DNA from: an uncultured Ruminococcus sp.
GTDB taxonomy: Bacteria > Bacillota > Clostridia > Oscillospirales > CAG-272
Direction of reading: 5' to 3'
DNA: 64,000 nucleotides
Assembly (NCBI GenBank): GCA_964634795.1
Contig: CAZWLL010000002.1
Coordinates: forward strand, 5,836-69,835
A model generated the notes under the pieces. That model ran no database searches and was not told where the DNA came from. It worked only from the letters and a program-made list of their open reading frames with translations. Of the stretch, positions 29,796 through 44,189 are shown piece after piece. A program made the translations under genes and the position numbers. Every line of letters starts with the position of its first letter. Position 1 is the stretch's first letter.

Positions 29796-31292
29796 ATGAA
29801 AAGAATTTTTACTCTTATTTTAGCATCGTTGATTCTCTTTTCATCTACATCCTGTGCAGCATTAAAAACTCAAGACGCCGACACAGATATATTTGAAACC
29901 GATACCAACGAAACAAACTCGTCAGAAACAAATATCGAAGAAACAACTCCCGCTCAGCCTGATGAAACAGTAACGGACAATGCTGAGGAGGAAAAAACAG
30001 AAGAAACCGAAAATAACGATACCGTTAATTACGAAAACGTTGAAATGAGCTTCGTGCTCGGTTCCCCGCTTACTAAAGAAAGCGAATACACAGATGACAA
30101 CGGTGTTGTACTGTTTAAAGAAAAATACGAACTGCCTCAGCTTGAGGTTCACGCTGCTGACGGTACGGTATGTGACCTTGAAAAAGGATTTACAAGTGAC
30201 TCAGGTAGCTACTATCCGCCTGAAACTGACATATGCCGTACATTCAACGCAAAAATGCAGGAAGCAATCGATACATTTGAGGCGGCGGTTGAACAGGATT
30301 TGGCGAATGCCCGTGACTATTACGCAACTCTCAGCGCCGATGAACAGGCAAACTGGTACAGCTATGCGGAAGAACTTACTATCGCATCCACATACCAGAC
30401 TAACGGCTTGTTAAGCATACAGCTAAACGGATATGTAAGTCTCGGCGGTGTTCATCCTACATCTTACACTACCGTTTATAATTTCGATCTCACCACGGGT
30501 GAGTTTATCACACTTGAATCTCTTACAGGTGAAAGCAATCCGCTCGGTCAAGTATTAAAAAATAATTTGGTAAATCTCGTATTAGAGGAAATCAATACTC
30601 AAAATTTAAGCGAATCCTACTTTGATGACTACTATTCATACGTTAACGACTTAACGTCATACGCAAAAATCAGCTTTAATGATTCCGGAATGGTCATTAT
30701 GTTTGACACATATTTGTTAGCGCCGTATGCCGCTGGCCCTCAGATGTTCGATATTACATATGACAAATTCTATTATGCTCTCAGCGAACATATGCAGTCG
30801 CTTTTCACACTTGATACGGACAATTCGATAATATCCGATTATCGTACGACACAGGTATTATGGTCATGGTTTTACATGTCGATGCCGCCGGTATTTAACG
30901 AAGATGAACAGATTACCTCTGACGACGGTTATCAGATTTGCCGTGTAAACCTCGGAAATATCAACACATTAAGTGATTTAAAATCGTTCCTCTGCCGTCA
31001 TGTAAGTGAAGAGGTTGCAGACAAGTGGATGACCGAAAAGCGTTTCTATGAAATAGACGGTGCTCTCTACACAACATTCGGTGCACGCGGAGGAGACATT
31101 ACAATAGGCAAGACCGAGTACAAGGTTGAGCTTAACGGAAACAGCGGTACACTGATTCAAACGGTTTACCGTCAGGATTACGATGAAGCTACAGACAGTC
31201 TTGCACTCACAGGTGAAACCGAGGATTATATATATCCGTTCGAATTACAAGACGGACACGCAGTATTTTCCGATTTCCCTTGTCCGTATTAA
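29796..31292 (+). CDS. Lipoprotein with DUF3298/DUF4163 (PdaC/RsiV-like) domain
   Basis: Signal peptide with lipobox LFSSTSC, an acidic T/E-rich linker, and GGVHPTSYTTVYNFDLTTGEFITLESL typical of DUF3298. Confidence 0.55.
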   Translation: MKRIFTLILASLILFSSTSCAALKTQDADTDIFETDTNETNSSETNIEETTPAQPDETVTDNAEEEKTEETENNDTVNYENVEMSFVLGSPLTKESEYTDDNGVVLFKEKYELPQLEVHAADGTVCDLEKGFTSDSGSYYPPETDICRTFNAKMQEAIDTFEAAVEQDLANARDYYATLSADEQANWYSYAEELTIASTYQTNGLLSIQLNGYVSLGGVHPTSYTTVYNFDLTTGEFITLESLTGESNPLGQVLKNNLVNLVLEEINTQNLSESYFDDYYSYVNDLTSYAKISFNDSGMVIMFDTYLLAPYAAGPQMFDITYDKFYYALSEHMQSLFTLDTDNSIISDYRTTQVLWSWFYMSMPPVFNEDEQITSDDGYQICRVNLGNINTLSDLKSFLCRHVSEEVADKWMTEKRFYEIDGALYTTFGARGGDITIGKTEYKVELNGNSGTLIQTVYRQDYDEATDSLALTGETEDYIYPFELQDGHAVFSDFPCPY

Positions 31293-31316
31293 TTAAGCAG
31301 AATAAATAAATCGAAA

Positions 31317-31350
31317 ATGACGTCAGCTGAATTACATCGGCTGACGTCAT
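31317..31350 (+). terminator. Intrinsic terminator of the lipoprotein gene
   Basis: ATGACGTCAGC-12 nt loop-GCTGACGTCAT followed by TTCTTATT. Confidence 0.6.
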
Positions 31351-31362
31351 TTCTTATTATAA

Positions 31363-31397
31363 AAAGCATCACCTATGTGTTACATAGGTGATGCTTT
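31363..31397 (-). terminator. Intrinsic terminator of the five-gene ABC/HlyD operon
   Basis: AAAGCATCACCTATGT-GTT-ACATAGGTGATGCTTT, a 16-bp perfect stem 15 nt beyond the stop at 31412. Confidence 0.65.
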
Positions 31398-31411: not shown

Positions 31412-33850
31412 TTATGAATGTTCGGAAATGTAAATCTTTGCGCGGCTTGCGATTACTTTTGCGGTCTCTTCAGCGGTCTTTGTACCTCCGAAGAATCCGG
31501 AAAGCTCCTCTGTGATAATTTCAAGCAAATCGGAATCGGAACGGGAAACTACAGTGGCGTTCTTTATAAGATTCATTGTAATATCAACTACCTTTTGATC
31601 AAAGGGCTGTTTGGATTTTTTCAAATACTCTATGTAATCTTCGCTGTATCCCTGTTCTCTGTACCATTCGTAATCATCTTCAGTATTTTCGTAGTAATAA
31701 TAATTATCTTTTGCGTTTGCAGCCTGTGATTCCAGATTGCTGATATTAGGTGAGAAGTAATAGCTTCTGTTTGTAATACTGTCATCATTGAGGAAGAATT
31801 TCAATACTTCCCAAGCCTGATTCTTTACCTTGGATGACTGGCTTATGGCAAGCTCGATATTAGGAACGATTATAGCACCGTTGCCCGAATCGGTAGGATA
31901 ACCTATAGCTGTTATATCACTTGAAGCGAATGTATTTTGGTCATACAAGAAGTCGGTAAAACTCGAAAGATTTCCGTATTCAAGCAATCCGTAATCCTTA
32001 TAATAACGGAGCTCATACTTCTGCTGCATCTCGGTTTCTAATTCCTGGTCATATACATAATCATCACCCTGTGATGCGTAGTATGCCTCCCAGTAACCCT
32101 GTTCGGGACACTGTGCAAGATACTTTATAAAATCAATAAAGCCTTGTGTTTCGAATTTGGTTTCACCGGTTTCCCAATTGATAAACAAATCCATGCAGTT
32201 TCCGAAGAATTGGTGAATAATTTCATCTCTGCTGCTGGTAAAGAATGCTGTCATACCTTCGGGCATATTGTTTATGGCATCAAGCATTTCTTCAAATGTC
32301 CAGCCTGATTCGGTTCCTACGTATTGCGATTTAGCGATTAAGGTTTGCAGACTGAAGGACATAATAATCGAATAAAGCTTTCCGTCAACCGTAGTAGCGT
32401 CAAATATATTCGTAAGATAATTCGAGCGGTCTATACCGTTTTCGGCATCATCTATATATGTGTTCAGGTCTGCGAAAATACCCTTCTGGAAATAGCTTTC
32501 CACGGGCAGTGATGAATCTAAAAGTATTATATCGGGGAGATTGCCTGTTATAATATCATTGTTAAACTGAGTAACACCGCCTTGGTAATTATTCTCTTCA
32601 TTATTATACTGATCATATGTCACCAGAGAAATACGAATGCCTGTGTTTTGCTTGTTAAATTTTATTACAGAGTTAACTATATTATAGTTTGAGTAAAGAG
32701 TTGCGAGCTTTACGATAATTTCTTCCTGAATTTCTTCATCGGGAACTTTTGTCATCAGCTGAATTGTGGTTTGACTGCTCTCATTACTGTAATTGTATGT
32801 GGTAACAAGCATTCTTCCGTCAGGAAGCAGTTTAATCGAATTTATTTGGCTCTGCGATATATCGGAGTTGATAAAGTTCATCTCTTCGGAGATTGTATCG
32901 GTGTTGGGATCATACTTTGAGACGTTTGTGTTAGTACGGTAATAAAGCTGTCCGTTATAGAATCCGAGGAATTCATACATGTTGTTTATAACAGTCTTGA
33001 TATTTTCACCGTTATAATCGGTTTTAGTGCCGTTTTCTACTACACAAAGCTTTTGGTTGCTGTCTTCATAGTAGTATAAATAAACACTGTCACCGCTGAT
33101 GCAGATATTACTTATCCAACCGCCGTCAAGTTCAAACTTTGTTTTGTAATTCATATCGGAATCGAAAACTATGTACACATTCTCAGCGACAACGTATACG
33201 TCTCCGCTGTCCGATATTTTAATCGAATTGATGTATGTAGATGAGATATCTACATTAGCTGCCGTGAAGCAATCGGCAAGATCATAGCTGCCCGTTTGTT
33301 CACCGGTAGTCGAATCGATTTGTATCAAAGTATAAGTATTCTGCGAATTACCCGTAGTTTCATCCCAGTTATACTGACAATATACCATATCGATAATGCC
33401 TTTATTATCGATAGCCATTGACTGCAGGTAACCGGGTATATCGCTCGGCATGCTTACTGTAGTGCTCTCCCCTGTTTCAGTGTTTACCGTAGTGACGTTT
33501 TGCAGGCTGAGATAATCGTAATACCAACCGTCCGGAAGAGTTGTGGTTTCTTCATCGGAATCCTCCTGAGAGCCTTCCCAATAGTATCCCGCTCTTCTCT
33601 CGACCTCTTCTCCGAGTTCGTTCATTGTTAATGTGTATGTGGTTGTATAAACCGTATACACATTATTATTCGTATAATCTACACTGCTGACATACGATAT
33701 ATCAGAAGGGAGCGGAACTTCCACACTGCTGTAAACATTGGTACGCTTGGATTTGGGCGGTTCACTCTCGGACTGAGAGCATGATACAAGGGCAGAGCTT
33801 GCGAGCATAACACCCGCCAGAAGTCCTGCCGTTATTCTTTTTGAATTCAT
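31412..33850 (-). CDS. 812-aa lipoprotein: N-terminal ~350-aa beta-rich (propeller-like?) domain fused to a family-1-type extracellular solute-binding domain
   Basis: Signal peptide with lipobox SSALVSC. From about aa 375 the sequence looks like a sugar SBP (IIVKLATLYS...NNDIITGNLPDIILLD...GWTFEEMLDA). The N-terminal part is Y/T/D/N-rich with repeated beta-like segments. Confidence 0.6.
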   Translation of the reverse strand: MNSKRITAGLLAGVMLASSALVSCSQSESEPPKSKRTNVYSSVEVPLPSDISYVSSVDYTNNNVYTVYTTTYTLTMNELGEEVERRAGYYWEGSQEDSDEETTTLPDGWYYDYLSLQNVTTVNTETGESTTVSMPSDIPGYLQSMAIDNKGIIDMVYCQYNWDETTGNSQNTYTLIQIDSTTGEQTGSYDLADCFTAANVDISSTYINSIKISDSGDVYVVAENVYIVFDSDMNYKTKFELDGGWISNICISGDSVYLYYYEDSNQKLCVVENGTKTDYNGENIKTVINNMYEFLGFYNGQLYYRTNTNVSKYDPNTDTISEEMNFINSDISQSQINSIKLLPDGRMLVTTYNYSNESSQTTIQLMTKVPDEEIQEEIIVKLATLYSNYNIVNSVIKFNKQNTGIRISLVTYDQYNNEENNYQGGVTQFNNDIITGNLPDIILLDSSLPVESYFQKGIFADLNTYIDDAENGIDRSNYLTNIFDATTVDGKLYSIIMSFSLQTLIAKSQYVGTESGWTFEEMLDAINNMPEGMTAFFTSSRDEIIHQFFGNCMDLFINWETGETKFETQGFIDFIKYLAQCPEQGYWEAYYASQGDDYVYDQELETEMQQKYELRYYKDYGLLEYGNLSSFTDFLYDQNTFASSDITAIGYPTDSGNGAIIVPNIELAISQSSKVKNQAWEVLKFFLNDDSITNRSYYFSPNISNLESQAANAKDNYYYYENTEDDYEWYREQGYSEDYIEYLKKSKQPFDQKVVDITMNLIKNATVVSRSDSDLLEIITEELSGFFGGTKTAEETAKVIASRAKIYISEHS

Positions 33851-33867
33851 TTTTACCTCCGAATAAA

Positions 33868-34965
33868 TTATAATGACTTTCTTTCTATATGCTTGGGTTT
33901 ATTATTGGGATGCTTTTTTTTATAATTTCTATAAACCGATGTCGAAAGCCTTTTGATGTCATAAATAATCGAATAACCCGAAAAGCGGAGTGTGATAATC
34001 GAGAGCAAAAGCGCTACAACAAACAGTGCAGCCATTGCGACCTCGAATATCATGAAAACGGCACAATAGTAATCGTATACTCGCGCTTCGTTTTCCCAAT
34101 ACGGGTATTCAATCTTATCTCCTCTTATCCATGAATACTTGAGAGTTTTCATATTAGCGTAACGGTTTTCCAAGGAAAATCTTGATGTAACTTCTATTAC
34201 CTCGCTTGTTTCCTCGTTCATCTTTATTACGCCGTCGAATATATTTTTCGCAAACCCTTTAACCGAATTCGGTAAAGCCGCCTCAAATATCGTGACGCTG
34301 TTGTCCTCGCCGACAGTCTGTACATATCCCGCATAATTCATATACATTCTCGGTCTTGTTCCGTATGTATAACCGTATACACCGCTTTCGCTTTCAGGCT
34401 CTGCAACGCCTGAGACAACAAACTCCACATCGTTTATTGTTACCGTCATACCCACAATGTTTTCGGCTCCGAACAGCTTCCATGCAAGATTGCGGTCAAT
34501 TACAATTCCCATAGGATTAGAATCATCGTTCAGAAAGTACGAGCCGTACACTATCTTCATCGGATGAAATACAAAATAATCTCCTCCTGCCGCAATTGCT
34601 TCCGCGGTAACAGAGCTTTTAGTGCCTGTTACACTTACCGTTACATCTGCAGCGTAGGTATATGCCCATGATCTCGCTCCGTCATTCGGAGTTACCGATG
34701 AATTAAGCAAAGATGCGTCTATAGAGTTTGCCCATGATAATGCCTGATCAGACGATACCGCGCTTCCCTCTTCAAGATAAAGGTTAACCACGGCGTATGC
34801 GTCTCCGTTTGATGACCAGCGCGAGCCTGCTTCAAGATATTCGAGCTTATTCTTATAATGCAGAACAAGAAGCTCGAATATTCCGATAACAATTAGCGAA
34901 ACCACAAGTATTACAGCGCATATTCCCGAAAAAACGAGAAGCTTTTTGTTGACTTTTTCGTTCAT
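33868..34965 (-). CDS. Membrane protein with a MacB/FtsX-type extracytoplasmic core domain (MacB_PCD-like) but only two TM helices
   Basis: N-terminal TM (LLVFSGICAVILVVSLIVIGIF), PCD-like GDYFVFHPMKIVYGSYF...GIVIDRNLAWKLFGAENIVGMTVTINDVEFVVSGV, and a single C-terminal TM (AVFMIFEVAMAALFVVALLLSII). No TM3/TM4. Confidence 0.5.
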   Translation of the reverse strand: MNEKVNKKLLVFSGICAVILVVSLIVIGIFELLVLHYKNKLEYLEAGSRWSSNGDAYAVVNLYLEEGSAVSSDQALSWANSIDASLLNSSVTPNDGARSWAYTYAADVTVSVTGTKSSVTAEAIAAGGDYFVFHPMKIVYGSYFLNDDSNPMGIVIDRNLAWKLFGAENIVGMTVTINDVEFVVSGVAEPESESGVYGYTYGTRPRMYMNYAGYVQTVGEDNSVTIFEAALPNSVKGFAKNIFDGVIKMNEETSEVIEVTSRFSLENRYANMKTLKYSWIRGDKIEYPYWENEARVYDYYCAVFMIFEVAMAALFVVALLLSIITLRFSGYSIIYDIKRLSTSVYRNYKKKHPNNKPKHIERKSL

Positions 34966-34969
34966 TTTA

Positions 34970-37222
34970 TCAGTTCTCCGCGAGGCGTACCTGCTGCTTA
35001 TCCGATATCGGTACTGTTGAGTTCGTTATTACAAATTCGCTTCCGTATAATCCCGAAACAGCGGATTGAGTGTCATCCGACGCGAGAACCTCGATATCCA
35101 CCCTTTTCGCTGTATATCTCATGTTCAAAGGTGTTTTCTTCGATTCAACGACAAGGACGAACTTTCCGTCGTTATCCTCACGAATCGCTGAATTGGGAAG
35201 AACGGAATCGTATGACTGGCTCTTGTCGCCTATGGAGAAGGTAAGAGACTGTCCTTCGGTTACGTCGCCTGTCACTGTAATTGTGATAATACGGTTTTTA
35301 CCCTGAGATGACGCGTCCGAGCGCATTCCCGTAACGGATGCCTCGATATTGGTATACCACCACGAGTTTGTAACACTGCACGGTGTGCCAACCTGAATTT
35401 TTCTTGCCTGTTCCGATGACATGCTGATTTCCACAATATAACCCTTGTCGGCAATTTCAATTGATGCTACGGTATTACCGCTCGAAACCGATTCACCGGC
35501 GGAAAAGTTTATGGATGTAATCTTACCTGCGATGGGCGCGGTAATCTGTGTGTTTTCGGGAGCGTTTTTGTATTTCTCTATTTTCGCTTCAAGCTCCTCA
35601 AGCTGTTTCTTCTGGTCTTCTCTGTCAAGGTCGTTTTTTGTATTGCTCTGATTTTCGGTTGCTTTGGTTATCTCAAGAGTTGATTCAAGCTTTTCGATTG
35701 ACTCTTCCTGTGATTTTATTTTATCCGCCAATTCTTCTTCTGTGTACTCGGATGTCGAATCGGTAAGCTGTTTTTTCAGCTTTTCAAGGTCTTTGTTTTT
35801 CTGTTTGATGGTGTCCTCGAGAGATTTTTCCTCGTTCTCGTAGGTTGTGAGAAGAAGCGAGTATTCGTTCACCGTGTCTTCAGCCGTGCTCTGTTTTATG
35901 AGGGATTCGTATTTTGTTTTGGCTTCGGTATACTCGGTCTCAATCTCGGTCAGCTTTGCGGCGGCGTCATCGTAATTCTTCTGTGCTTCGCTTAAGTCGT
36001 AGTCAACGGTATAATCGACAAGGTCGTCAACCTCCGGCATTCCGATAACCTCAAGCTTGTCTTCGATTTCGGAAATCTGGTCTTCGAGGGACTCAACCTT
36101 ATCATCATAGTCTTCTATCTGACGTTCGTAGTTTTTTTCGGCTTTTTCATAAGCACTTTTAGCGGCTTGATATGCTTCCCATGCGCTTTCCTTTGAAATA
36201 GTTGTTGAACCATCTCCTTCGACTTCTATCTCATTATCATTCACTGATGCGTTATCATAATCTCTTTTAGCTTCCACCATAGCATTATATAGTGTAATAA
36301 GCTCTTCTTCAGCATCCTCTTTATATCTTCTTATTTCCTTTTCGAGTGATTCAAGTTCATCGTTAAGTGTTGCAAGTTCTTTTGTAAGTGTATTCGCTTC
36401 GGTTACACTGCCGGAAATGCTCTTTATTTCATCGAGCTTTTCTTTATAAAAGTCTGCTTCCTTTTTTAATGTCTCGTATTCGCCTGATACGGCATCATAC
36501 TCTTCCTTAGCTGTCGCAAGCTTTTCGGAGACGGTCTCATTCGATAGCACATCCTTTTCGATTAACGCCTTCGCTTCGCTTATCGTGCTTTTTACGTCGG
36601 CTATCGTGTTTGACAGCTCTTCCTTCTGCTCTTCAAGAGTTTCTATGGTTTCGGTTAAAGAGTCTATCTGATTATTGATAATCGTTGTGGTATCGACACC
36701 GGAAAGCAGGTCATTGTAATTCTTCTGCAGTTTTGTAAGTTCTTCTTTTGCATCCTCAAGAGATTTTTCCGCATCCGTTATAGTCTGCTTTGACGTAAGT
36801 TCCGTTACGGTATCCCCGAGTACGGCGAGATCATACTCCCTCTTCAGCTTATCGTACTCCTCCTGAGCGGCTTCAAGCTGTTCGCTGGCTCCGCCCTTCA
36901 GCTCGAGTATAGGCTCATCCTTTTCGACAGTCTGTCCTTCCTTGACATATACGGAAACTACCTTTCTCGACTGAACGACACCGTCATCTGCTTCGGCTTC
37001 GTCCGCTTCATACACAACGTTATAGCTTGCGTTCGCTTTAACCGTGCCGGATGCCTTTATCGCGGTCGACAATGTTCCCGATGACGCATATTGAGCGGAC
37101 ACCTCGGGTAATGAATAGTTTAAGATTGTATTTGAGAAAAACGTGAGCAGCAGCAATATTACAAGGAAAATAATAGCTGCGTTCTTTATCCAGGCTCTGC
37201 GTCTTGATGAATCATTTGACAT
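34970..37222 (-). CDS. HlyD/membrane-fusion-protein-family adaptor with an exceptionally long (~440 aa) coiled-coil insert
   Basis: N-terminal TM. Split lipoyl motif VVSVYVKEGQTVEKDEPILEL ... ITAPIAGKITSINFSAGESV. C-terminal beta-barrel/MPD-like region. aa ~112-552 are E/K/L/T/D-rich and heptad-like. Confidence 0.7.
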   Translation of the reverse strand: MSNDSSRRRAWIKNAAIIFLVILLLLTFFSNTILNYSLPEVSAQYASSGTLSTAIKASGTVKANASYNVVYEADEAEADDGVVQSRKVVSVYVKEGQTVEKDEPILELKGGASEQLEAAQEEYDKLKREYDLAVLGDTVTELTSKQTITDAEKSLEDAKEELTKLQKNYNDLLSGVDTTTIINNQIDSLTETIETLEEQKEELSNTIADVKSTISEAKALIEKDVLSNETVSEKLATAKEEYDAVSGEYETLKKEADFYKEKLDEIKSISGSVTEANTLTKELATLNDELESLEKEIRRYKEDAEEELITLYNAMVEAKRDYDNASVNDNEIEVEGDGSTTISKESAWEAYQAAKSAYEKAEKNYERQIEDYDDKVESLEDQISEIEDKLEVIGMPEVDDLVDYTVDYDLSEAQKNYDDAAAKLTEIETEYTEAKTKYESLIKQSTAEDTVNEYSLLLTTYENEEKSLEDTIKQKNKDLEKLKKQLTDSTSEYTEEELADKIKSQEESIEKLESTLEITKATENQSNTKNDLDREDQKKQLEELEAKIEKYKNAPENTQITAPIAGKITSINFSAGESVSSGNTVASIEIADKGYIVEISMSSEQARKIQVGTPCSVTNSWWYTNIEASVTGMRSDASSQGKNRIITITVTGDVTEGQSLTFSIGDKSQSYDSVLPNSAIREDNDGKFVLVVESKKTPLNMRYTAKRVDIEVLASDDTQSAVSGLYGSEFVITNSTVPISDKQQVRLAEN

Positions 37223-37250
37223 ATGTATCTCCTAAGTTATTTAATCACAA

Positions 37251-38201
37251 TCAACCTGTTACCGATGCCGAGTATGCAATGCCTTCAATGAGGTAATCCT
37301 CACTGTAAAGGAAAAGCAGAACCGGAGGCACCATATATATTACCGCAATTGCCAAGGCTATGCCCGTATCTCCTTCGTTAATCTTTGAAAGGAAAACCGA
37401 AAGCGGATACAATTCCTGATCGGTTAAAAGAATAAGCGGCTGTTCTACCATATTCCAGTAATCGATAAAAACAAGGATGGCTATAGAATACAGAGTACTT
37501 TTGCAAAGCGGCATAAAGATACTTGCGAATATTCTGAATTCCGACGCACCGTCAATCTGTGCGGCTTCCACTATCGATTTCGGAATTCGTTTCATGTACT
37601 TTGTCAGAATGAAAACCGAAAACGGTGAAAACACACCGGGCAGAATAATTGCCCATCTGGTGTTCAGCAAATTCATCTTGTTTATGACAAGATAGTTCGG
37701 TACCAGAGTAACCTGATAAGGCATGAGCATCAGTATAATATATGTAAAAAATATTATAGAGCGGAATTTGGTTTGCGCTCTCGATATAGCATACGACGCA
37801 CCTGTGGCAACCAACAGCTGGAATATTACTATCGGTACAACGTATATAACGGAGTTCCAGAACTTTATAAGATACTCGGGGCTTTTCAAGAGTACGGTTG
37901 CGTACTGCGAGAAGCTTACCTTGTCGGGAATAAGCTGCAAATTTACCTTTTCCGCGATAAATACTCTTCCGCTGCCGGAGGTGCCGAGTCCCGTAAATAT
38001 TTTGCCGTAATTCGCGGATATTTCCGTGGTTGACATGAACGAGTTAGTTATGGTAAATACCGTAGGAAACAGGAATAATGCCGCAAACGAAATAAGAATT
38101 AAGAGAGCGAAAAACAGAAACAAAGCGTGAGACAGCTTTTTCTTCTTTCCCTTTTTGGCTTTCGGAAACGCCGCGGAATTGAGTTTGATTTCTTCCGTCA
38201 T
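37251..38201 (-). CDS. Carbohydrate ABC transporter permease (MalG-like)
   Basis: Six TM helices and the EAA loop VEAAQIDGASEFRIFASIFMP. Confidence 0.85.
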   Translation of the reverse strand: MTEEIKLNSAAFPKAKKGKKKKLSHALFLFFALLILISFAALFLFPTVFTITNSFMSTTEISANYGKIFTGLGTSGSGRVFIAEKVNLQLIPDKVSFSQYATVLLKSPEYLIKFWNSVIYVVPIVIFQLLVATGASYAISRAQTKFRSIIFFTYIILMLMPYQVTLVPNYLVINKMNLLNTRWAIILPGVFSPFSVFILTKYMKRIPKSIVEAAQIDGASEFRIFASIFMPLCKSTLYSIAILVFIDYWNMVEQPLILLTDQELYPLSVFLSKINEGDTGIALAIAVIYMVPPVLLFLYSEDYLIEGIAYSASVTG

Positions 38202-39148
38202 TCTTCAATCCCCTTTCCGAGACGGTTATCCGCCCACAAGAGAATACCGATTATCACTATCATTATCAAACAAAGAACAACCGCCGCACTTGAAAGCTTT
38301 TGATATTCGAAGTTGCTGAAGGTATTGTTCATGAAATGCTGCAGCGTATACATTGAGTCATATGGGTAATTGCCCGTGAGCAAATAAACCTCACGGAATA
38401 CCTTGAATGAGTTAATTAAAGACATTATTGTAACAAATGAAATCGTAGACGCAAGATATCTCATCTTAATCATAAAGAAACGTCTTATAGGTCCGCATCC
38501 GTCAAGCATCGCAACCTCTATGATTCCTTTTGGTACTGCGGATAAAGCAGACATAAACATTATCATATTGTATCCGATGTTTTTCCAAAGGAAGAGAAGA
38601 ACAACGACCTGATATCCGTAGTCCGACTTAAGCCATTCAACGGGATCGGCACCGAACAGTGCCGTTATGTCATTTACAACTCCGTTGTAATCGAACAGAA
38701 CCTGCCATATAAGTATAACCGATGCCGCGGGGACAATCATAGGTGACAAGAATATTGTTCTGAACGTACTTTTGCACGGTATATTCGCATCAAGCATAAC
38801 CGCAAGTGCCAAAGAAAGCACAACAACCAGCGGAACTGCGGTAACCGAAAATATTCCCGTGTTTTTTAAAGCAAGCTTAAACGCGGAATTGTTGAACAGC
38901 TTCTCAAAATTAGCCAAACCGACAAAGTTAGCCGATGTGGTGTTGTCTATTAACGAATAATAGATTACAACAAGAAACGGCAAAATAAAGAAGAGCATAA
39001 CACCTAAAAAAGAAGGTATTAAAAACGGAAGCGTTCGCGCCCTCTCCTTAAGTTCCCGTTTTGTTATGTATTTTTCTTTGCGAGGTTTAACGGAAACCGA
39101 GGGATCCCCTCCGCTTTCCGCCGCAGTGAGCAGTTGCTTTTTTTTCAT
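38198..39148 (-). CDS. Carbohydrate ABC transporter permease (MalF-like)
   Basis: Six TM helices and the EAA-type loop IEVAMLDGCGPIRRFFMIK. 4-nt overlap with the next permease gene. Confidence 0.85.
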   Translation of the reverse strand: MKKKQLLTAAESGGDPSVSVKPRKEKYITKRELKERARTLPFLIPSFLGVMLFFILPFLVVIYYSLIDNTTSANFVGLANFEKLFNNSAFKLALKNTGIFSVTAVPLVVVLSLALAVMLDANIPCKSTFRTIFLSPMIVPAASVILIWQVLFDYNGVVNDITALFGADPVEWLKSDYGYQVVVLLFLWKNIGYNMIMFMSALSAVPKGIIEVAMLDGCGPIRRFFMIKMRYLASTISFVTIMSLINSFKVFREVYLLTGNYPYDSMYTLQHFMNNTFSNFEYQKLSSAAVVLCLIMIVIIGILLWADNRLGKGIEE

Positions 39149-39247
39149 TGATTTACGACCATGTATAATTGTTTATGATTTTAATTATATGACGACGTGA
39201 TATTCGAAAAGTTCCGTAAAAATAGTTTTTTACATAATGTTAAAAAA

Positions 39248-39970
39248 TTACATCCATCCATCAAGCTCTCTCTTTTCAAGAGCTGTAATTATACGTTTTT
39301 TCAGACCGCGGTGACTTTTCTCGAGCTCCCGTATAACACCCTTAATCTCGGCTCTGTCGGTTTTCCCGTCTTCGGGACACGGAGATTTTATAACGGGCAG
39401 ACCTTCACTTTTCACAAGTGACTTTATATCGGCTTCACGTGTGTATATAAGAGGACGGATAACGGTGATATCGTTATCCGTATATTCTGTAACAGGCGAA
39501 TAACAGCCTATTCTTCCCTCATTCACAAGAGTAAGCATAAAGGTCTCGGCGGCGTCATCGAGATGGTGTCCGAGCGCGAGTCGGCTGGCGTTCAGTTTTT
39601 TCGCACATGAAATAAGCGCTCCTCTTCTCAGCTTTGCGCATAAAGAACACGGATTCTTCTCTTTGCGTACATCGAAAACTATTTCTTTAATTTTTGTATG
39701 CTCAATGTAATAAGGTATATTTTGTGCCGAACAGTATTCCGACAAAGGCGCGTAAATATCACCGACATCCTCAAATCCCATGTCAACGGTTATTCCCACA
39801 ATCGAGAATTTCTTCGGGTAAAATTCCTTTAATCTGTTCAGAACCGCAAGCAATGCTATCGAATCCTTTCCTCCGGACAGTCCTACGGCTATTGTATCCG
39901 ATTCTTCTATCATTTTATATTTGTCAACCGCCTGTCGAACGGTAGAAAGCATATGCTGCATTTCATTCAT
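39248..39970 (-). CDS. ttcA: PP-loop ATPase, tRNA 2-thiocytidine biosynthesis TtcA family
   Basis: SGGKDS PP-loop and the CSLCAKLRRG Cys motif. Confidence 0.75.
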   Translation of the reverse strand: MNEMQHMLSTVRQAVDKYKMIEESDTIAVGLSGGKDSIALLAVLNRLKEFYPKKFSIVGITVDMGFEDVGDIYAPLSEYCSAQNIPYYIEHTKIKEIVFDVRKEKNPCSLCAKLRRGALISCAKKLNASRLALGHHLDDAAETFMLTLVNEGRIGCYSPVTEYTDNDITVIRPLIYTREADIKSLVKSEGLPVIKSPCPEDGKTDRAEIKGVIRELEKSHRGLKKRIITALEKRELDGWM

Positions 39971-40023
39971 AGTTTCAACCTTAATTTATGTTTCTGTCCG
40001 TTCCACTGTGCGGCATATTCATG

Positions 40024-40734
40024 CTACTTTTTATTAAGCAAATCCGGACGTCTTTCTTTTGTTATTTCAAGTGATTTTTCATGCCGCCACTTTTCTATGT
40101 TCGCATGATGGCCTGACAGGAGTACCTCAGGCACTTCCCTGTTCATCCATGTCTGAGGGCGTGTATACTGCGGATATTCAAGAAGATTGTCTTCAAAACT
40201 TTCCTTCTCATAGCACTCCGGCAGCGCAAGCACACCGTCGCAAAGTCTTCCCACAGCATCTGTTATAATACAAGCAGGCAATTCTCCGCCCGTCAAAACA
40301 TAGTCTCCTATAGACATTTCTTCATCGACAATTTCTTCGATAACGCGCTCGTCTATACCCTCGTAATGTCCGCACAAAAGGATAAGATTTTCTTTTTCGG
40401 ACAGCTCTTTCGCAATATTCTGATTGAATGTACGTCCTCTCGGTGACATGTAAATAAGATAAGGCTTTGTTTCTTTATTATCGTCTTTCTTATCCGCCAT
40501 TATCGATTCAACCACCGCATTATAGCATCTCCAAATCGGCGGAGCTGCCATAAGCATCCCTCTCCCGCCGCCATACGGAGTATCATCTACTCTCCTGTGC
40601 TTGTCTTCGGAATAATCACGTATATTGTGAACTCTGACATCAAGCTTTCCGGCACGCCTTGCGCGGCCGATAATGCTCTCGGAAAGTATAGCGTCAACGT
40701 ATTCCGGGAAAAGAGTCATAATATCTATGCGCAT
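40024..40734 (-). CDS. trmD: tRNA (guanine37-N1)-methyltransferase
   Basis: [33 protein letters not shown]. Confidence 0.95.
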
Positions 40735-41252
40735 TATTCCCTCATCCCTTCAATAAGATGAACACTTATGCATCCGTTTACAACGTCGATATCACGAATA
40801 AATTCATTTACTGCGGGAATCATGAATTCTCCGCCGTTCACATCGGAAACAACATATATATCTCGTCCGGCAGGAGATATTACTTCCTTCAATACACCGT
40901 ATTTTTCGTTTGTTGCTTCATCTATAACATCAAGCCCGATCATATCCGCAATGAAAACATCACCTTTTTTTCTTGAAATGTCATCACGGTCGGCATAAAA
41001 TACAGTACCTTTATATTTTATCGCTTCATCAACTGTCTTTATGTTTTCGAATGTTACGAGTACCATATTCTTCTGTACGGCAGACGCCATAACCTTCATC
41101 GGAGCATATTCATTGTTTTGAAGCTTTACATACATTTTTCTCAGCTTCGCAAGTGTTTCCGCATCATTACAGTAGCATTCAAGCTTTAATGTTCCTCTGA
41201 CACCGTGTGTCGATACGGCTTTGCCGCACTCAAGATATTTCTGTACACTCAT
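40734..41252 (-). CDS. rimM: 16S rRNA processing protein RimM
   Basis: [16 protein letters not shown]-terminal motif and a PRC barrel C-terminus, directly upstream of trmD. Confidence 0.9.
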
Positions 41253-41366: not shown

Positions 41367-42326
41367 TCATATTTCTATTCTCACAAACATCACGGATATT
41401 CTGTTATACGTAAATGTCACAAGCAGTTCCCCATTGTTGTATAATACCGCGGGATATGACAGCTCTCCTCCGTCCTCTTTCATTATGTCGAATGCATATT
41501 CAAAGCTGTCTCCTCCGTTTTCGGAAACAAGGAGAGATATCGGTGATCTATCACCTGTATCTACGGGATTGCAGACGAGAAATATCCTGCCGTCGGGAGA
41601 CGAGTCAAGATCTATTCCGCTGTTATTGCTCGGAACATCGATAGGATATGCATCCGAAAAAATCAGTTTTTCTTTGTCTGCATCCGAGCGGAATATCTTT
41701 CCGTTTTTTGATCGCATTAATGCGTGAATTCCGTTATCATCACACCATAACGCAGGCTGGATAAGCTTAATTTTCTCTCCGTCGCATAAATATTGTCCGC
41801 GCTCCCATGTCGCGCATCCGTCACGGGAAATATCGATAAACGCGCGCCATACACTTTCTCTGTCGCTTGTTTCGTGCGAAGCTCCTGCAATTACAGTTCC
41901 GTCGGACAATATAAGCGGTTTATTTTTCACGGGACCTCGTCCGCCGCTTCTGTCTCCGTCTACAAGCTCAACAGGTTCCGTCCATGTATATCCGTCATCA
42001 TATGAATATCTGACAAGAGTTTTCCATTCGGGAATCGTTGAACCTTTTTTGTAGCATAATACGATTTTACCGTCGATTTTGAACAGAACGGGGTTCCAGC
42101 ACGCTATATTATCCTTTACCGAAATCATCCTCGGTTCTGTCCATATGCCGCTTGATTTGTCTCTTCTGGACAAGTATATTTCGACGTCATCTGCTTTCTC
42201 ATGTTCGCCGCCAAACCATGCAGCTAAAATGTCACCGTTATCCGCTGCGCAGACAGTCGATGCGTGACATGAGTTTGTCACTCTTTTTTCTATCGGAAAA
42301 ATCAGTGTTTTTTCTGTTATTTTCAT
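41367..42326 (-). CDS. Sialidase/BNR (Asp-box) beta-propeller family protein, no signal peptide
   Basis: Asp-box motifs SYDDGYTW, SRDGCATW, SENGGDSF. 319 aa with no N-terminal hydrophobic leader. Confidence 0.6.
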   Translation of the reverse strand: MKITEKTLIFPIEKRVTNSCHASTVCAADNGDILAAWFGGEHEKADDVEIYLSRRDKSSGIWTEPRMISVKDNIACWNPVLFKIDGKIVLCYKKGSTIPEWKTLVRYSYDDGYTWTEPVELVDGDRSGGRGPVKNKPLILSDGTVIAGASHETSDRESVWRAFIDISRDGCATWERGQYLCDGEKIKLIQPALWCDDNGIHALMRSKNGKIFRSDADKEKLIFSDAYPIDVPSNNSGIDLDSSPDGRIFLVCNPVDTGDRSPISLLVSENGGDSFEYAFDIMKEDGGELSYPAVLYNNGELLVTFTYNRISVMFVRIEI

Positions 42327-42327
42327 A

Positions 42328-43284
42328 TCACAATCCTAAGCGATTTATCATGTCTTCAGTTAATTCATGCAGCTGATCAACACACATCATTTGATATTTA
42401 TTCAGCCTTGTTTTATCACATGATCTGCTTTCGAGAGTCATATTTATTCCTTCATGCGCCGCGAAATTATATTTTGCACTTACGGGGTATGCAAGAGACT
42501 CCGTAAATGCGGTTATGCTCAAAAACGAACCGACAAGAGACGCCTTTTCATTATTTATATTATGTGTCAGCCAGGAATATATTGTCGGTTGAAAATTAGC
42601 CATAACACCGCAAAAGCCTGCAGCTCCGTGCAGCATCGACTGATAAAGCGTTTCGGCATTAGCGTTAAACAGCATCAGATTGCTTCCGCGAACAATATCA
42701 AGCCGTCTCTCGATTTCATCCTCATCACAGCATGTATCCTTGATAAAACGAAATCTTCCGGTTGAAAGACACCACTCCAAGATTTTGGGAGTTATCAATC
42801 TCTTATATGGTACGGGGCATTCATAGAGACCGAGTGCAATATCGTCTGGGATTGAGTCGATTATTTTCTCCGCATCCTTTATCCAGTTTTCATCGGATGT
42901 ATTTTCTATATCAAGTCGGTTGGTTATTAATATGACAGCGTCCGCACCGCTTTCGGCTATTCGGTTGAGCTCACGTATCTGGTCATCACGTTTTTCGGAT
43001 ACATGTCCCGACGCGACAATCGTCATTGCTTTTCTGCTGTGATCACAGGCTGCAAGCTCTTTTGCTTTTTTCACAACAGCATTCGCCAATGATACTCGTT
43101 CGTCTTCATTTAGATACCATATTTCACTTGACTGACAAACGGCAAAGATACCGTCGCAATTATTATTCCAATACCATTCTACAAGTCTGTCTACAGCCTC
43201 AAAATCGATTTTTCCGTTATCTAGGTAGGGCGTAATCATCGTAGGATATGATCCCTGCGCGTAATTATCATGTGCATATGTCAT
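42328..43284 (-). CDS. Dihydrodipicolinate synthase / N-acetylneuraminate lyase family (class I aldolase) protein
   Basis: DHDPS-family pattern with the Schiff-base Lys context FRFIKDTC. Its stop lies 1 nt upstream of the sialidase-fold gene start. Confidence 0.75.
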   Translation of the reverse strand: MTYAHDNYAQGSYPTMITPYLDNGKIDFEAVDRLVEWYWNNNCDGIFAVCQSSEIWYLNEDERVSLANAVVKKAKELAACDHSRKAMTIVASGHVSEKRDDQIRELNRIAESGADAVILITNRLDIENTSDENWIKDAEKIIDSIPDDIALGLYECPVPYKRLITPKILEWCLSTGRFRFIKDTCCDEDEIERRLDIVRGSNLMLFNANAETLYQSMLHGAAGFCGVMANFQPTIYSWLTHNINNEKASLVGSFLSITAFTESLAYPVSAKYNFAAHEGINMTLESRSCDKTRLNKYQMMCVDQLHELTEDMINRLGL

Positions 43285-43372
43285 AATTGTTTCCTCTCTT
43301 CATTCAGTCATGAAAATTCCACGGAGTAAGGTGCATCACTCTGCTCATAAGATGAATTTTATTGTCATTTTT

Positions 43373-43401
43373 ATAATAGCAATTAAGATTGTAATTGTCA
43401 A
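43373..43401 (-). promoter_or_regulatory. Candidate promoter of the DHDPS-family/sialidase-fold pair
   Basis: Minus strand TTGACA-17 nt-TATTAT. Confidence 0.45.
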
Positions 43402-43410
43402 GTATTTCTA

Positions 43411-44121
43411 TTATATCACATCGACTGTTTTCGACTGCGCAATGCTCATTCTGTGCCAGTTAATAAATCCGTATAAATCGTTTACGAAAAACATTACAAA
43501 GCATACGACTACCGATAAATACGACCTATTGCTTATTGAAGCCAGTACCCAAAGTATAATTAACACCACATCGTTCGCCGCATAAGCCAGCGCGAAATAT
43601 TTGCTCCGCCTGAAAGTAAGATATACTGCCGCAAAGCTTGTTGTTACCGATATCGTACTCGGGATGATATTGGCGGTATTAAAACTGTCGAGAATAAAAT
43701 AAAATCCGAATGTTACAGCCAAAGTCAGAACTGACATGAAAACAAATTCTTTAACACTCAGTTTATTCACCTCAACCTGTGCATGGTTGCCGTTATACGG
43801 ATTGCGAATCCACGAAATAAGCGCAAACAATGCCATAGGACCCGTCATCCCGAGGTAGGTTATCATTTCCCCGTAATATGAAAACGAATATGATATTATT
43901 CCGTAAAGAATACTGAATATAATAGCGAAAACCTGTCCTATCGGGTTGCCTTTTGCGTTTAAAATGAGCATTGTCGCTCCGACTATCGATGCACACAGTG
44001 TTAGTACACTGCCCGAATTCCATAACAGGTAAGTTGTGATAATAAGTGTGACAGATGTAAAATAGAGGATAAGCTCTCCGAGGGTAAAGTATCTTGTCAG
44101 CTTATCAAACATTCTTTTCAT
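43411..44121 (-). CDS. pnuC: Nicotinamide riboside (PnuC-family) transporter
   Basis: Multi-TM protein ending in FFVNDLYGFINW, typical of PnuC. Start set at the ATG at 44121 (MKRMFDKL) with GGAGG just upstream. Confidence 0.7.
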   Translation of the reverse strand: MKRMFDKLTRYFTLGELILYFTSVTLIITTYLLWNSGSVLTLCASIVGATMLILNAKGNPIGQVFAIIFSILYGIISYSFSYYGEMITYLGMTGPMALFALISWIRNPYNGNHAQVEVNKLSVKEFVFMSVLTLAVTFGFYFILDSFNTANIIPSTISVTTSFAAVYLTFRRSKYFALAYAANDVVLIILWVLASISNRSYLSVVVCFVMFFVNDLYGFINWHRMSIAQSKTVDVI

Positions 44122-44130
44122 TTTTCCTCC

Positions 44131-44189
44131 AAAAAGAAAAGCGTTCGCGGGCACATCTTCAAAGACCTAACGATGTGCGGCGAATGCTT
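44131..44189 (-). terminator. Leader (attenuator) terminator between the pnuC promoter and the pnuC RBS
   Basis: Minus strand AAGCAUUCGC-C-GCACAUC-13 nt loop-GAUGUGC-CC-GCGAACGCUU, then UUUUCUUUUU, immediately followed by GGAGG and the ATG. Confidence 0.55.

Follow-up and report, generated by a model that had tools for sequence, protein, structure and literature searches.

A conserved five-gene locus of gut and rumen Clostridia that combines CUT1-type permeases with HlyD- and MacB-type proteins

In textbooks, membrane-fusion adaptors and MacB-type core domains belong to export machines, and what they do in bacteria that have no outer membrane has long been unclear. Among importers, the CUT1-type ATP-binding cassette (ABC) transporters of Firmicutes commonly share an MsmX/MsmK-type ATPase encoded elsewhere in the genome (PMC7658222, PMC5730181, PMC9601137), as exemplified by Bacillus subtilis (PMC7658222, PMC5730181) and by transporter B of Clostridium thermocellum with Clo1313_2554 (PMC9601137). 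The present analysis concerns a stretch of 64,000 nucleotides from an uncultured Ruminococcus sp. (assembly GCA_964634795.1, contig CAZWLL010000002.1, positions 5,836 to 69,835; hereafter, the window). It contains five adjacent minus-strand genes in which parts of both kinds occur together: two importer-type permeases (permF and permG), an HlyD/membrane-fusion protein (MFP)-type adaptor, a protein with a MacB-type core domain (PCD) between two transmembrane (TM) helices, and a large lipoprotein with a sugar substrate-binding protein (SBP) domain.

The closest studied relative is probably transporter C of C. thermocellum (CbpC-MsdC1-MsdC2; Cthe_2125-2128 / Clo1313_2783-2786). Its operon comprises msdC1, msdC2, a fourth gene and, in the last position, cbpC (PMC8303734, PMC4788478), and the papers treat it as an ordinary sugar transporter of unknown role. 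Figure 1 of PMC9601137 lists an efflux-adaptor gene, 'acrA', among the sugar-transporter clusters, and the text of that paper is silent on the gene. We infer that this 'acrA' is the fourth gene of transporter C and putatively of HlyD type, although its RefSeq label, 'ATPase', differs (PMC7471329 supplement). The initial annotation of the window, made from the sequence alone, did not recognize the five-gene architecture as a described system. Our literature search likewise found no described system of importer, HlyD and PCD components, and neither HlyD nor MacB nor adaptors appear in a review of bacterial glycoside transporters from 2026. The parts are known folds, and their combination is essentially undescribed as a system in the searched literature. 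That claim is qualified by transporter C, a probable reduced relative that was knocked out without a growth phenotype (PMC9601137, PMC8303734).

Here we describe the five genes as one conserved unit, through which efflux-type parts are locked into an importer-type operon; this holds for hundreds of Clostridia from gut and rumen (296 species-level genomes). The reading that we favor, at a probability of roughly 0.45, is that their products form a single envelope complex, with a CUT1-type (type I) ABC importer as its core and a membrane-anchored, wall-reaching PCD/HlyD superstructure.

Gene order and its conservation

The open reading frames (ORFs) of the five genes, from upstream to downstream, are as follows.

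38198..39148, minus strand, permF, 316-aa ORF, MalF/UgpA-type ABC importer permease
37251..38201, minus strand, permG, 316-aa ORF, MalG/UgpE-type ABC importer permease
34970..37222, minus strand, HlyD/MFP-type adaptor, 750-aa ORF
33868..34965, minus strand, two-TM PCD protein, 365-aa ORF
31412..33850, minus strand, large lipoprotein (SBP), 812-aa ORF

The tight packing noted in the initial annotation was found at these coordinates: the start of permG overlaps the stop of permF by 4 nt, and gaps of 28, 4 and 17 nt follow in order. The 4-nt overlap and the 4-nt gap are signs of translational coupling and were counted in favor of a single complex.

A PCD profile search found relatives in 296 species-representative genomes, and the neighborhoods in the best 80 loci were tested by tblastn with the five window proteins, a locus being counted only when its contig was long enough for the neighbor in question. 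These loci belong to Oscillospiraceae ("Ruminococcus" metagenome-assembled genomes) and Lachnospiraceae, including Acetatifactor and the cultured Lachnotalea glycerini. The HlyD gene lay directly upstream of the PCD gene in 77/77 testable loci, permG was near the PCD gene in 53/53, and permF was upstream of it in 52/52. The SBP gene was found downstream of the PCD gene in 59 of 60 testable loci and on either side in 62/62. This order was kept down to approximately 30% PCD identity and was the same in a 28%-identity member from a sequencing-run assembly. In addition, clustering of the flanking ORFs across loci gave the five families as the only conserved ones. The association noted in the initial annotation thus survived the test of its conservation in relatives, and because the same order was seen in every testable related locus, the five genes constitute one conserved unit and not a chance assemblage. 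Cultured carriers are L. glycerini, Konateibacter massiliensis and Acetatifactor aquisgranensis.

Two representatives of the PCD family were PCD::SBP fusions of 1131 and 1089 aa (L161:8001-11396 and L162:8001-11270, respectively, in our locus numbering). The two fusion clusters have the orders permF-permG-HlyD-[PCD::SBP] (GCA_054277255.1) and SBP-permF-permG-HlyD-[PCD::SBP] (GCA_054272195.1). The lipobox is kept at one fusion junction, and a plain TM helix is found at the other. The topology is consistent in both, with the PCD outside, TM2 running inward, a linker, a TM segment running outward, and the SBP outside. As Rosetta-stone evidence, these natural gene fusions indicate that the PCD protein works together with the SBP.

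The five proteins and their surroundings

Both permeases matched BPD_transp_1 above the Pfam gathering threshold (permF, E 2.8e-11), and a hydropathy scan gave approximately six TM segments in each. The UgpA/UgpE, GlcT/GlcU and MalF/MalG models aligned to them far below the equivalog cut-offs; permF and permG are therefore family-level CUT1-type relatives and not equivalogs. The EAA coupling loops that had been annotated were present in the translations, as an EAA-like loop in permF (IEVAMLDGCGPIRRFF) and a canonical one in permG (VEAAQIDGASEFRIFASIFMPL). Across loci, the median identity to the window proteins was 61% for permF and 69% for permG.

No ABC ATPase was found in the cluster or in the 64-kb window by scans of the window and the 80 loci for Walker A plus signature motifs or by tblastn with the ATPases of related loci. 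Likewise, the cluster, the window and the flanks of related loci contained no MalK/MsmK/MsmX-type nucleotide-binding subunit, and no ABC ATPase lay beside the cluster in most of the 80 loci. The statement that no nucleotide-binding subunit is encoded was thus borne out. On the other hand, this absence, to which the initial annotation drew attention, is unremarkable because Firmicute sugar importers commonly share trans-encoded MsmX/MsmK-type ATPases (PMC7658222, PMC5730181, PMC9601137).

The 812-aa lipoprotein itself gave no Pfam, NCBIfam or PDB-sequence match. Its AlphaFold2 (AF2) model (predicted local distance difference test score (pLDDT) 87.5, predicted template-modeling score (pTM) 0.80) contains a beta-rich domain at residues ~40-370 with ~25 strands, which is probably a six-bladed propeller, followed by a CUT1-type SBP fold at ~375-812. 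The top Foldseek match of the SBP fold was CbpC (PDB 7x0o), followed by many sugar SBPs, and the SBP-family profile matched CbpC in the PDB with an E value of 1e-29, aligned over almost the whole SBP domain. AF2 and Foldseek agree with the annotated joining of a ~350-aa beta-rich N-domain to a sugar-SBP domain. The suggested membership in SBP_bac_1/8 was not seen for the window protein and held for homologues: among 38 of these, 22 matched SBP_bac_1, 7 matched SBP_bac_8, and 8 matched the SGL six-bladed propeller family. A signal peptide is present, the lipobox Cys24 is invariant in the SBP family, and the folded domain begins ~15 residues past the lipidated Cys. Conserved aromatic residues of the SBP domain are Y412, W517, F566, F571, W680 and Y807. 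The SBP was the most divergent of the five proteins, with a median identity of 33% to the window protein across loci, and it was duplicated, with 96 copies in 66 loci. In Lachnospiraceae a further large SBP is usually encoded upstream of permF, and some Oscillospiraceae have two or three SBPs in tandem. Duplicated and fast-diverging SBPs together with constrained permeases (61-69%) are what one would expect of a single translocator served by several receptors.

The 365-aa protein matched MacB_PCD (E 2.2e-10), and a PDB search with its family profile retrieved the periplasmic domain of MacB (E 5e-9). The AF2 model (pLDDT 84, pTM 0.79) consists of a TM helix at residues 7-40, an alpha/beta domain at 57-258 and a second TM helix at 289-329, followed by a short basic cytoplasmic helix. 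MacB, Spr0694-0695, YknZ, YbbP, HrtB and LolC/E were the best Foldseek matches of the model, in which a MacB Porter/Sabre-type PCD is held between TM1 and TM2. The annotated MacB-type core domain between only two TM helices is therefore upheld by the MacB_PCD and fold matches. Of the two families proposed for the protein, MacB_PCD was matched and FtsX was not: no FtsX domain (PF02687), no TM3-TM4 and no nucleotide-binding domain (NBD) were detected in it. Since the FtsX domain and TM3/TM4 are absent, the protein represents a PCD-only derivative, as distinct from a MacB/FtsX permease. The family comprises 598 clusters at 50% identity (E<=1e-30), nearly all of 340-400 aa, and 2189 clusters at 90% identity with the Lachnotalea protein as the query; the median identity to the window protein across loci was 38%. 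Conservation peaks at the stalk base, in RW after TM1 and YPYWENEAR before TM2.

The 750-aa adaptor matched HlyD_3 (39.2 bits; threshold 22.2) and Biotin_lipoyl_2 (32.9 bits; threshold 29.8), with lipoyl matches at ~87-108 and from ~558. TIGR01730 (RND_mfp) aligned to residues 496-747 with 67 bits, under its 94.9 cut-off. A single N-terminal TM segment lies at ~16-34, and residues ~558-750 hold the C-terminal lipoyl half, the beta-barrel and the membrane-proximal domain. Between residues 112 and 555 there are just eight Gly and one Pro, and a Gly-rich break (G336/G338) lies near the midpoint, close to the tip of the hairpin. These matches agree with the annotation of a single-TM HlyD/MFP-type protein with ~440 aa of coiled coil between its lipoyl halves. 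Because the two lipoyl halves have to meet, the intervening ~445 residues must form a hairpin, and given a continuous antiparallel coiled coil, its arms of ~220 residues each would measure ~33 nm. Adaptor length in the family ranges from 543 to 971 aa, with medians of ~570 aa in Lachnospiraceae-type and ~770 aa in Oscillospiraceae-type loci, and the same arithmetic gives estimated hairpins of ~17-50 nm. The median identity to the window protein across loci was 44%. In an alignment of 68 adaptors, conservation was highest in two parts, the N-terminal TM with its juxtamembrane segment and, at the C-terminal side, the membrane-proximal domain. It was lowest at the hairpin tip, with 50-70% gaps, and a conserved docking motif there, like the RLS motif of Gram-negative adaptors, was therefore rejected. 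The conserved adaptor ends and PCD stalk base, together with the variable coil, point to specific membrane contacts and a generic shaft of variable length.

The features that border the operon are as follows.

31356..31397, minus strand, intrinsic terminator of the operon, 15-16-bp stem (31397-31363) then TTTTTAT
39149..39247, minus strand, 99-nt spacer between the PP-loop (TtcA-like) gene and permF

The terminator hairpin was thus recovered as annotated. It is one of two strong back-to-back hairpins between convergent genes, that at 31363-31397 belonging to the operon and that at 31315-31352 to a plus-strand DUF3298 lipoprotein gene; the only Rfam match at 31315-31397 was a spurious sub-threshold one to a small nucleolar RNA. 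The convergent gene (29796-31292) encodes a 498-aa lipoprotein with a DUF3298 domain and a long N-terminal part that is acidic and rich in Thr, Glu and Asn, and it was not conserved beside the cluster in other genomes. On the upstream side, rimM, trmD and a PP-loop (TtcA-like) gene occupy 39248-41252 on the same strand, directly preceding permF. This rimM-trmD-ttcA arrangement also precedes the cluster in 12-17 Oscillospiraceae loci, the most distant of which have ~35-40% PCD identity. No terminator-like hairpin, Rfam element (riboswitch or leader RNA) or promoter was identified in the 99-nt spacer, and read-through from rimM-trmD-ttcA is possible because a terminator-like hairpin is missing there. 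Farther upstream, at 41367-44154, a BNR_2 gene (sialidase-like, 319 aa, no evident signal peptide) and a DHDPS-family gene (N-acetylneuraminate-lyase-like) adjoin a gene for a PnuC-type nicotinamide mononucleotide transporter and may form a small sialic-acid-related unit.

A candidate importer complex and its alternatives

In the favored model, permF and permG would form a MalFG-like translocator that is powered through its EAA loops by a shared, trans-encoded MsmX/MsmK-type ATPase. The lipid-anchored 812-aa protein would be the receptor, its CbpC-like SBP domain docking on the permeases and its propeller domain adding glycan capture or docking. The two-TM PCD protein would sit beside the permeases, physically tied to the SBP. 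Around it the HlyD protein would oligomerize by means of its conserved TM segment and membrane-proximal domain, in analogy to MacA on MacB. The antiparallel coiled-coil hairpin would project into the cell wall and, as a conduit, funnel or strut, might connect the importer with the wall or the cell surface. Carbohydrate uptake is the predicted net function. This model is favored because the EAA loops are intact, the SBP aromatics are conserved, the PCD and the SBP occur as fusions, and the SBPs are duplicated and fast-evolving on a constrained translocator. Furthermore, an adaptor conserved at its membrane ends and variable in its coil fits a membrane-anchored assembly with a generic shaft. If the five products do form one complex, it would represent a new route of carbohydrate uptake through the thick wall, or a new coupling of an importer engine to extracytoplasmic work.

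The initial annotation had proposed a composite envelope machine in which a long adaptor scaffolds the SBP or the substrate-capture step through the wall. The composite character is supported by the conservation of the five genes as one unit and by the PCD::SBP fusions, which argue for physical association. The scaffolding role fits poorly, since the SBP is lipid-anchored on a tether of ~15 residues and the hairpin tip is the least conserved part of the adaptor. A bolder version of the complex is a 'reverse tripartite' system, which would be a new class of machine in the monoderm envelope and in which the importer is capped by a MacB-PCD collar and a wall-spanning, oligomeric HlyD tube whose length depends on the lineage (~17-50 nm) channels surface-captured glycans or glycolipids inward. 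We regard this version as speculative and somewhat doubtful. If true, it would give the first import role for a membrane-fusion protein and would answer why monoderms keep such adaptors.

Several points weigh against an importer complex. To our knowledge, HlyD and PCD modules are otherwise found only in export or mechanotransmission machines. Oligosaccharides are generally assumed to diffuse through peptidoglycan, and the need for a conduit through the wall is questionable because small sugars should do so. Hexamer formation and a continuous hairpin are assumptions that the model makes by analogy. No glycoside hydrolase or sugar regulator was conserved beside the cluster, and the rimM-trmD-ttcA synteny suggests constitutive co-expression, which would be odd for a sugar importer. 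In the probable relative, CbpC bound none of the tested sugars by isothermal titration calorimetry or nuclear magnetic resonance, an extra loop is reported to block its pocket, and the mutant of transporter C showed normal growth on glucose, cellobiose and Avicel (PMC9601137).

Some of these observations would suit an extrusion or mechanotransmission machine, in which an importer-type MalFG engine with a trans ATPase moves the PCD protein and the HlyD tube. Such a machine would act on a surface molecule, for instance a glycolipid, a peptide, a toxin or a lipid-linked glycan, and would expel it from the outer leaflet, or deliver it, into the wall or across it, in the manner of MacAB, DevBCA and LolCDE. 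The SBP-like protein would then be a feeder or regulator rather than the receptor of an importer. The blocked pocket of CbpC and its failure to bind any tested sugar (PMC9601137) are in line with this. So are the housekeeping-like context without hydrolases or sugar regulators, the unusually high conservation of the permeases (61-69% across two families), and the confinement of PCD and HlyD modules elsewhere to export and mechanotransmission systems. However, the PCD protein does not have TM3-TM4 and the coupling helix that joins MacB-type PCDs to the NBD, and duplicated, fast-evolving SBPs with conserved aromatics resemble nutrient receptors. We also know of no type I importer-fold ABC transporter that drives export. 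On balance, extrusion is unlikely.

Another explanation is that two separate systems share one operon, namely a CUT1 importer (permF, permG and the SBP) and an orphan HlyD/PCD pair that serves a MacB-type pump encoded elsewhere. In approximately 11 Lachnospiraceae loci, an ABC ATPase gene and a gene for a 1000-1165-aa double-FtsX/PCD permease (FtsX2) with a ~220-aa coiled-coil insert lay immediately upstream of the cluster on the same strand, as in L057:2109-6168, L059:2171-6240 and L045:3-3881. A CPBP (Rce1-like) protease gene often sits between this pair and the cluster. The Oscillospiraceae locus L009 carries a 41%-identical copy of the pair (L009:15189-18970) in convergent orientation downstream of the cluster. 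On the other hand, when metagenomes were scanned around the FtsX2 family, the cluster was found in only 2 of 80 loci, both of which repeated the upstream arrangement. A MacB-type pump as an obligate partner was therefore rejected, and its link to the cluster is lineage-specific at best. In those 80 FtsX2-centered loci the FtsX2-ATPase pair was never accompanied by an adjacent cluster-type HlyD of its own. Moreover, no MacB-type ATPase/FtsX2 pump was found in the 64-kb window, the HlyD and PCD genes are always placed between permG and the SBP gene (77/77, 53/53 and 59/60 testable loci), and the PCD is fused to the SBP in two genomes and to no pump component.

L. glycerini bears on the same question. 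A canonical system of ATPase, YknX-like adaptor and MacB-FtsX permease (L164:12370-16032) lies 1.2 kb downstream of its cluster, past a gene for an energy-coupling factor (ECF) S-component. This system comes with an adaptor of its own, and the local identity between its parts and those of the cluster is only 22-29%, on which ground a recent duplication from the neighboring MacAB-like system was rejected. The upstream flank of the L. glycerini cluster contains a LytTR two-component pair and a chemoreceptor gene. Because FtsX2 loci rarely co-locate with the cluster and the L. glycerini system brings a separate adaptor, HlyD and PCD of the cluster do not look like spares of neighboring pumps. The suggestion of a separately encoded MacB-type pump as their partner is thus weakened, not eliminated; a lineage-specific functional link to the MacB-type pair may exist, and two independent systems are very unlikely.

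The five products might also constitute a non-transport device, that is, a sensor of wall thickness or surface, or a regulator of wall remodeling like FtsEX with EnvC, PcsB or CwlO, with the SBP-like domain as its ligand sensor. The constitutive-looking position behind rimM-trmD-ttcA, the dependence of adaptor length on lineage (medians of ~770 aa in Oscillospiraceae-type versus ~570 aa in Lachnospiraceae-type loci), and the normal growth of the C. thermocellum mutant (PMC9601137) would fit such a device. However, no hydrolase, kinase or other output domain was conserved in or beside the cluster, and the intact EAA loops of two full permeases argue for a working translocator, so that we give a device of this kind little chance. 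Finally, chance juxtaposition or a gene-calling artefact has a negligible probability, being refuted by neighborhoods conserved in 80/80 loci retrieved from the 296 matching species genomes and in distant members and by confident structure models for two of the five proteins.

Comparison with known systems

Like the CUT1 importers MalEFGK2, UgpBAEC and MsmEFGK / AraNPQ-MsmX, the five-gene unit has two BPD_transp_1 permeases, EAA loops and a lipoprotein SBP. Neither an MFP adaptor nor a MacB-type PCD protein is known from any CUT1 system. The added beta-rich domain brings the SBP to about twice the usual CUT1 size. As in many Firmicute CUT1 systems, no ATPase gene lies beside the permease genes (PMC7658222).

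The unit resembles MacAB-TolC, YknXYZ and Spr0693-0694-0695 in its adaptor, which has a TM segment, split lipoyl domain, hairpin, beta-barrel and membrane-proximal domain; faint YknX-type Pfam matches were seen in homologues. It resembles MacB-type permeases in holding a Porter/Sabre PCD between TM1 and TM2. Unlike MacAB and YknXYZ, it has no FtsX TM3-TM4, no NBD and no outer-membrane partner, and its transmembrane engine is an importer-type MalFG pair. The operon partner of the adaptor is this pair and not an efflux transporter, a MacB-type pump being adjacent in a minority lineage only. Judged from sequence length, the hairpin would be several times longer than in characterized adaptors, and it has no conserved tip.

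A purely conceptual analogy exists with the tunnels of mycobacterial Mce1/Mce4, MlaFEDB and PqiB/LetB, in which a membrane ABC engine is combined with an elongated multimeric structure that bridges the envelope for inward traffic. Those systems are built from unrelated protein families (MCE domains and YrbE/MlaE permeases), have lipids as substrates, and belong to diderm or mycomembrane envelopes. Homology to the Mce/Mla families was not detected.

Transporter C of C. thermocellum is probably the nearest studied counterpart and appears to be a reduced relative of the five-gene unit. For the SBP domain, CbpC (PDB 7x0o) ranks first in both sequence (profile E 1e-29) and fold. In contrast to the 812-aa lipoprotein, it has 438 aa and no N-terminal propeller domain, and a PCD gene is not reported in the papers on transporter C. 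A few genes beyond cbpC, C. thermocellum also encodes a CPBP 'abortive infection protein' (PMC7471329 supplement). In a comparison of xylose with cellobiose in strain DSM 1313 (RS14140-RS14170), the two permease genes and the 'ATPase'-labeled gene were down (to 0.39-0.58-fold), whereas cbpC, a second SBP gene and two downstream hypothetical genes were up (2.3-3.7-fold) (PMC7471329 supplement); these opposite responses hint at separate promoters in that relative. The family described here offers a concrete hypothesis for the unexplained transporter C.

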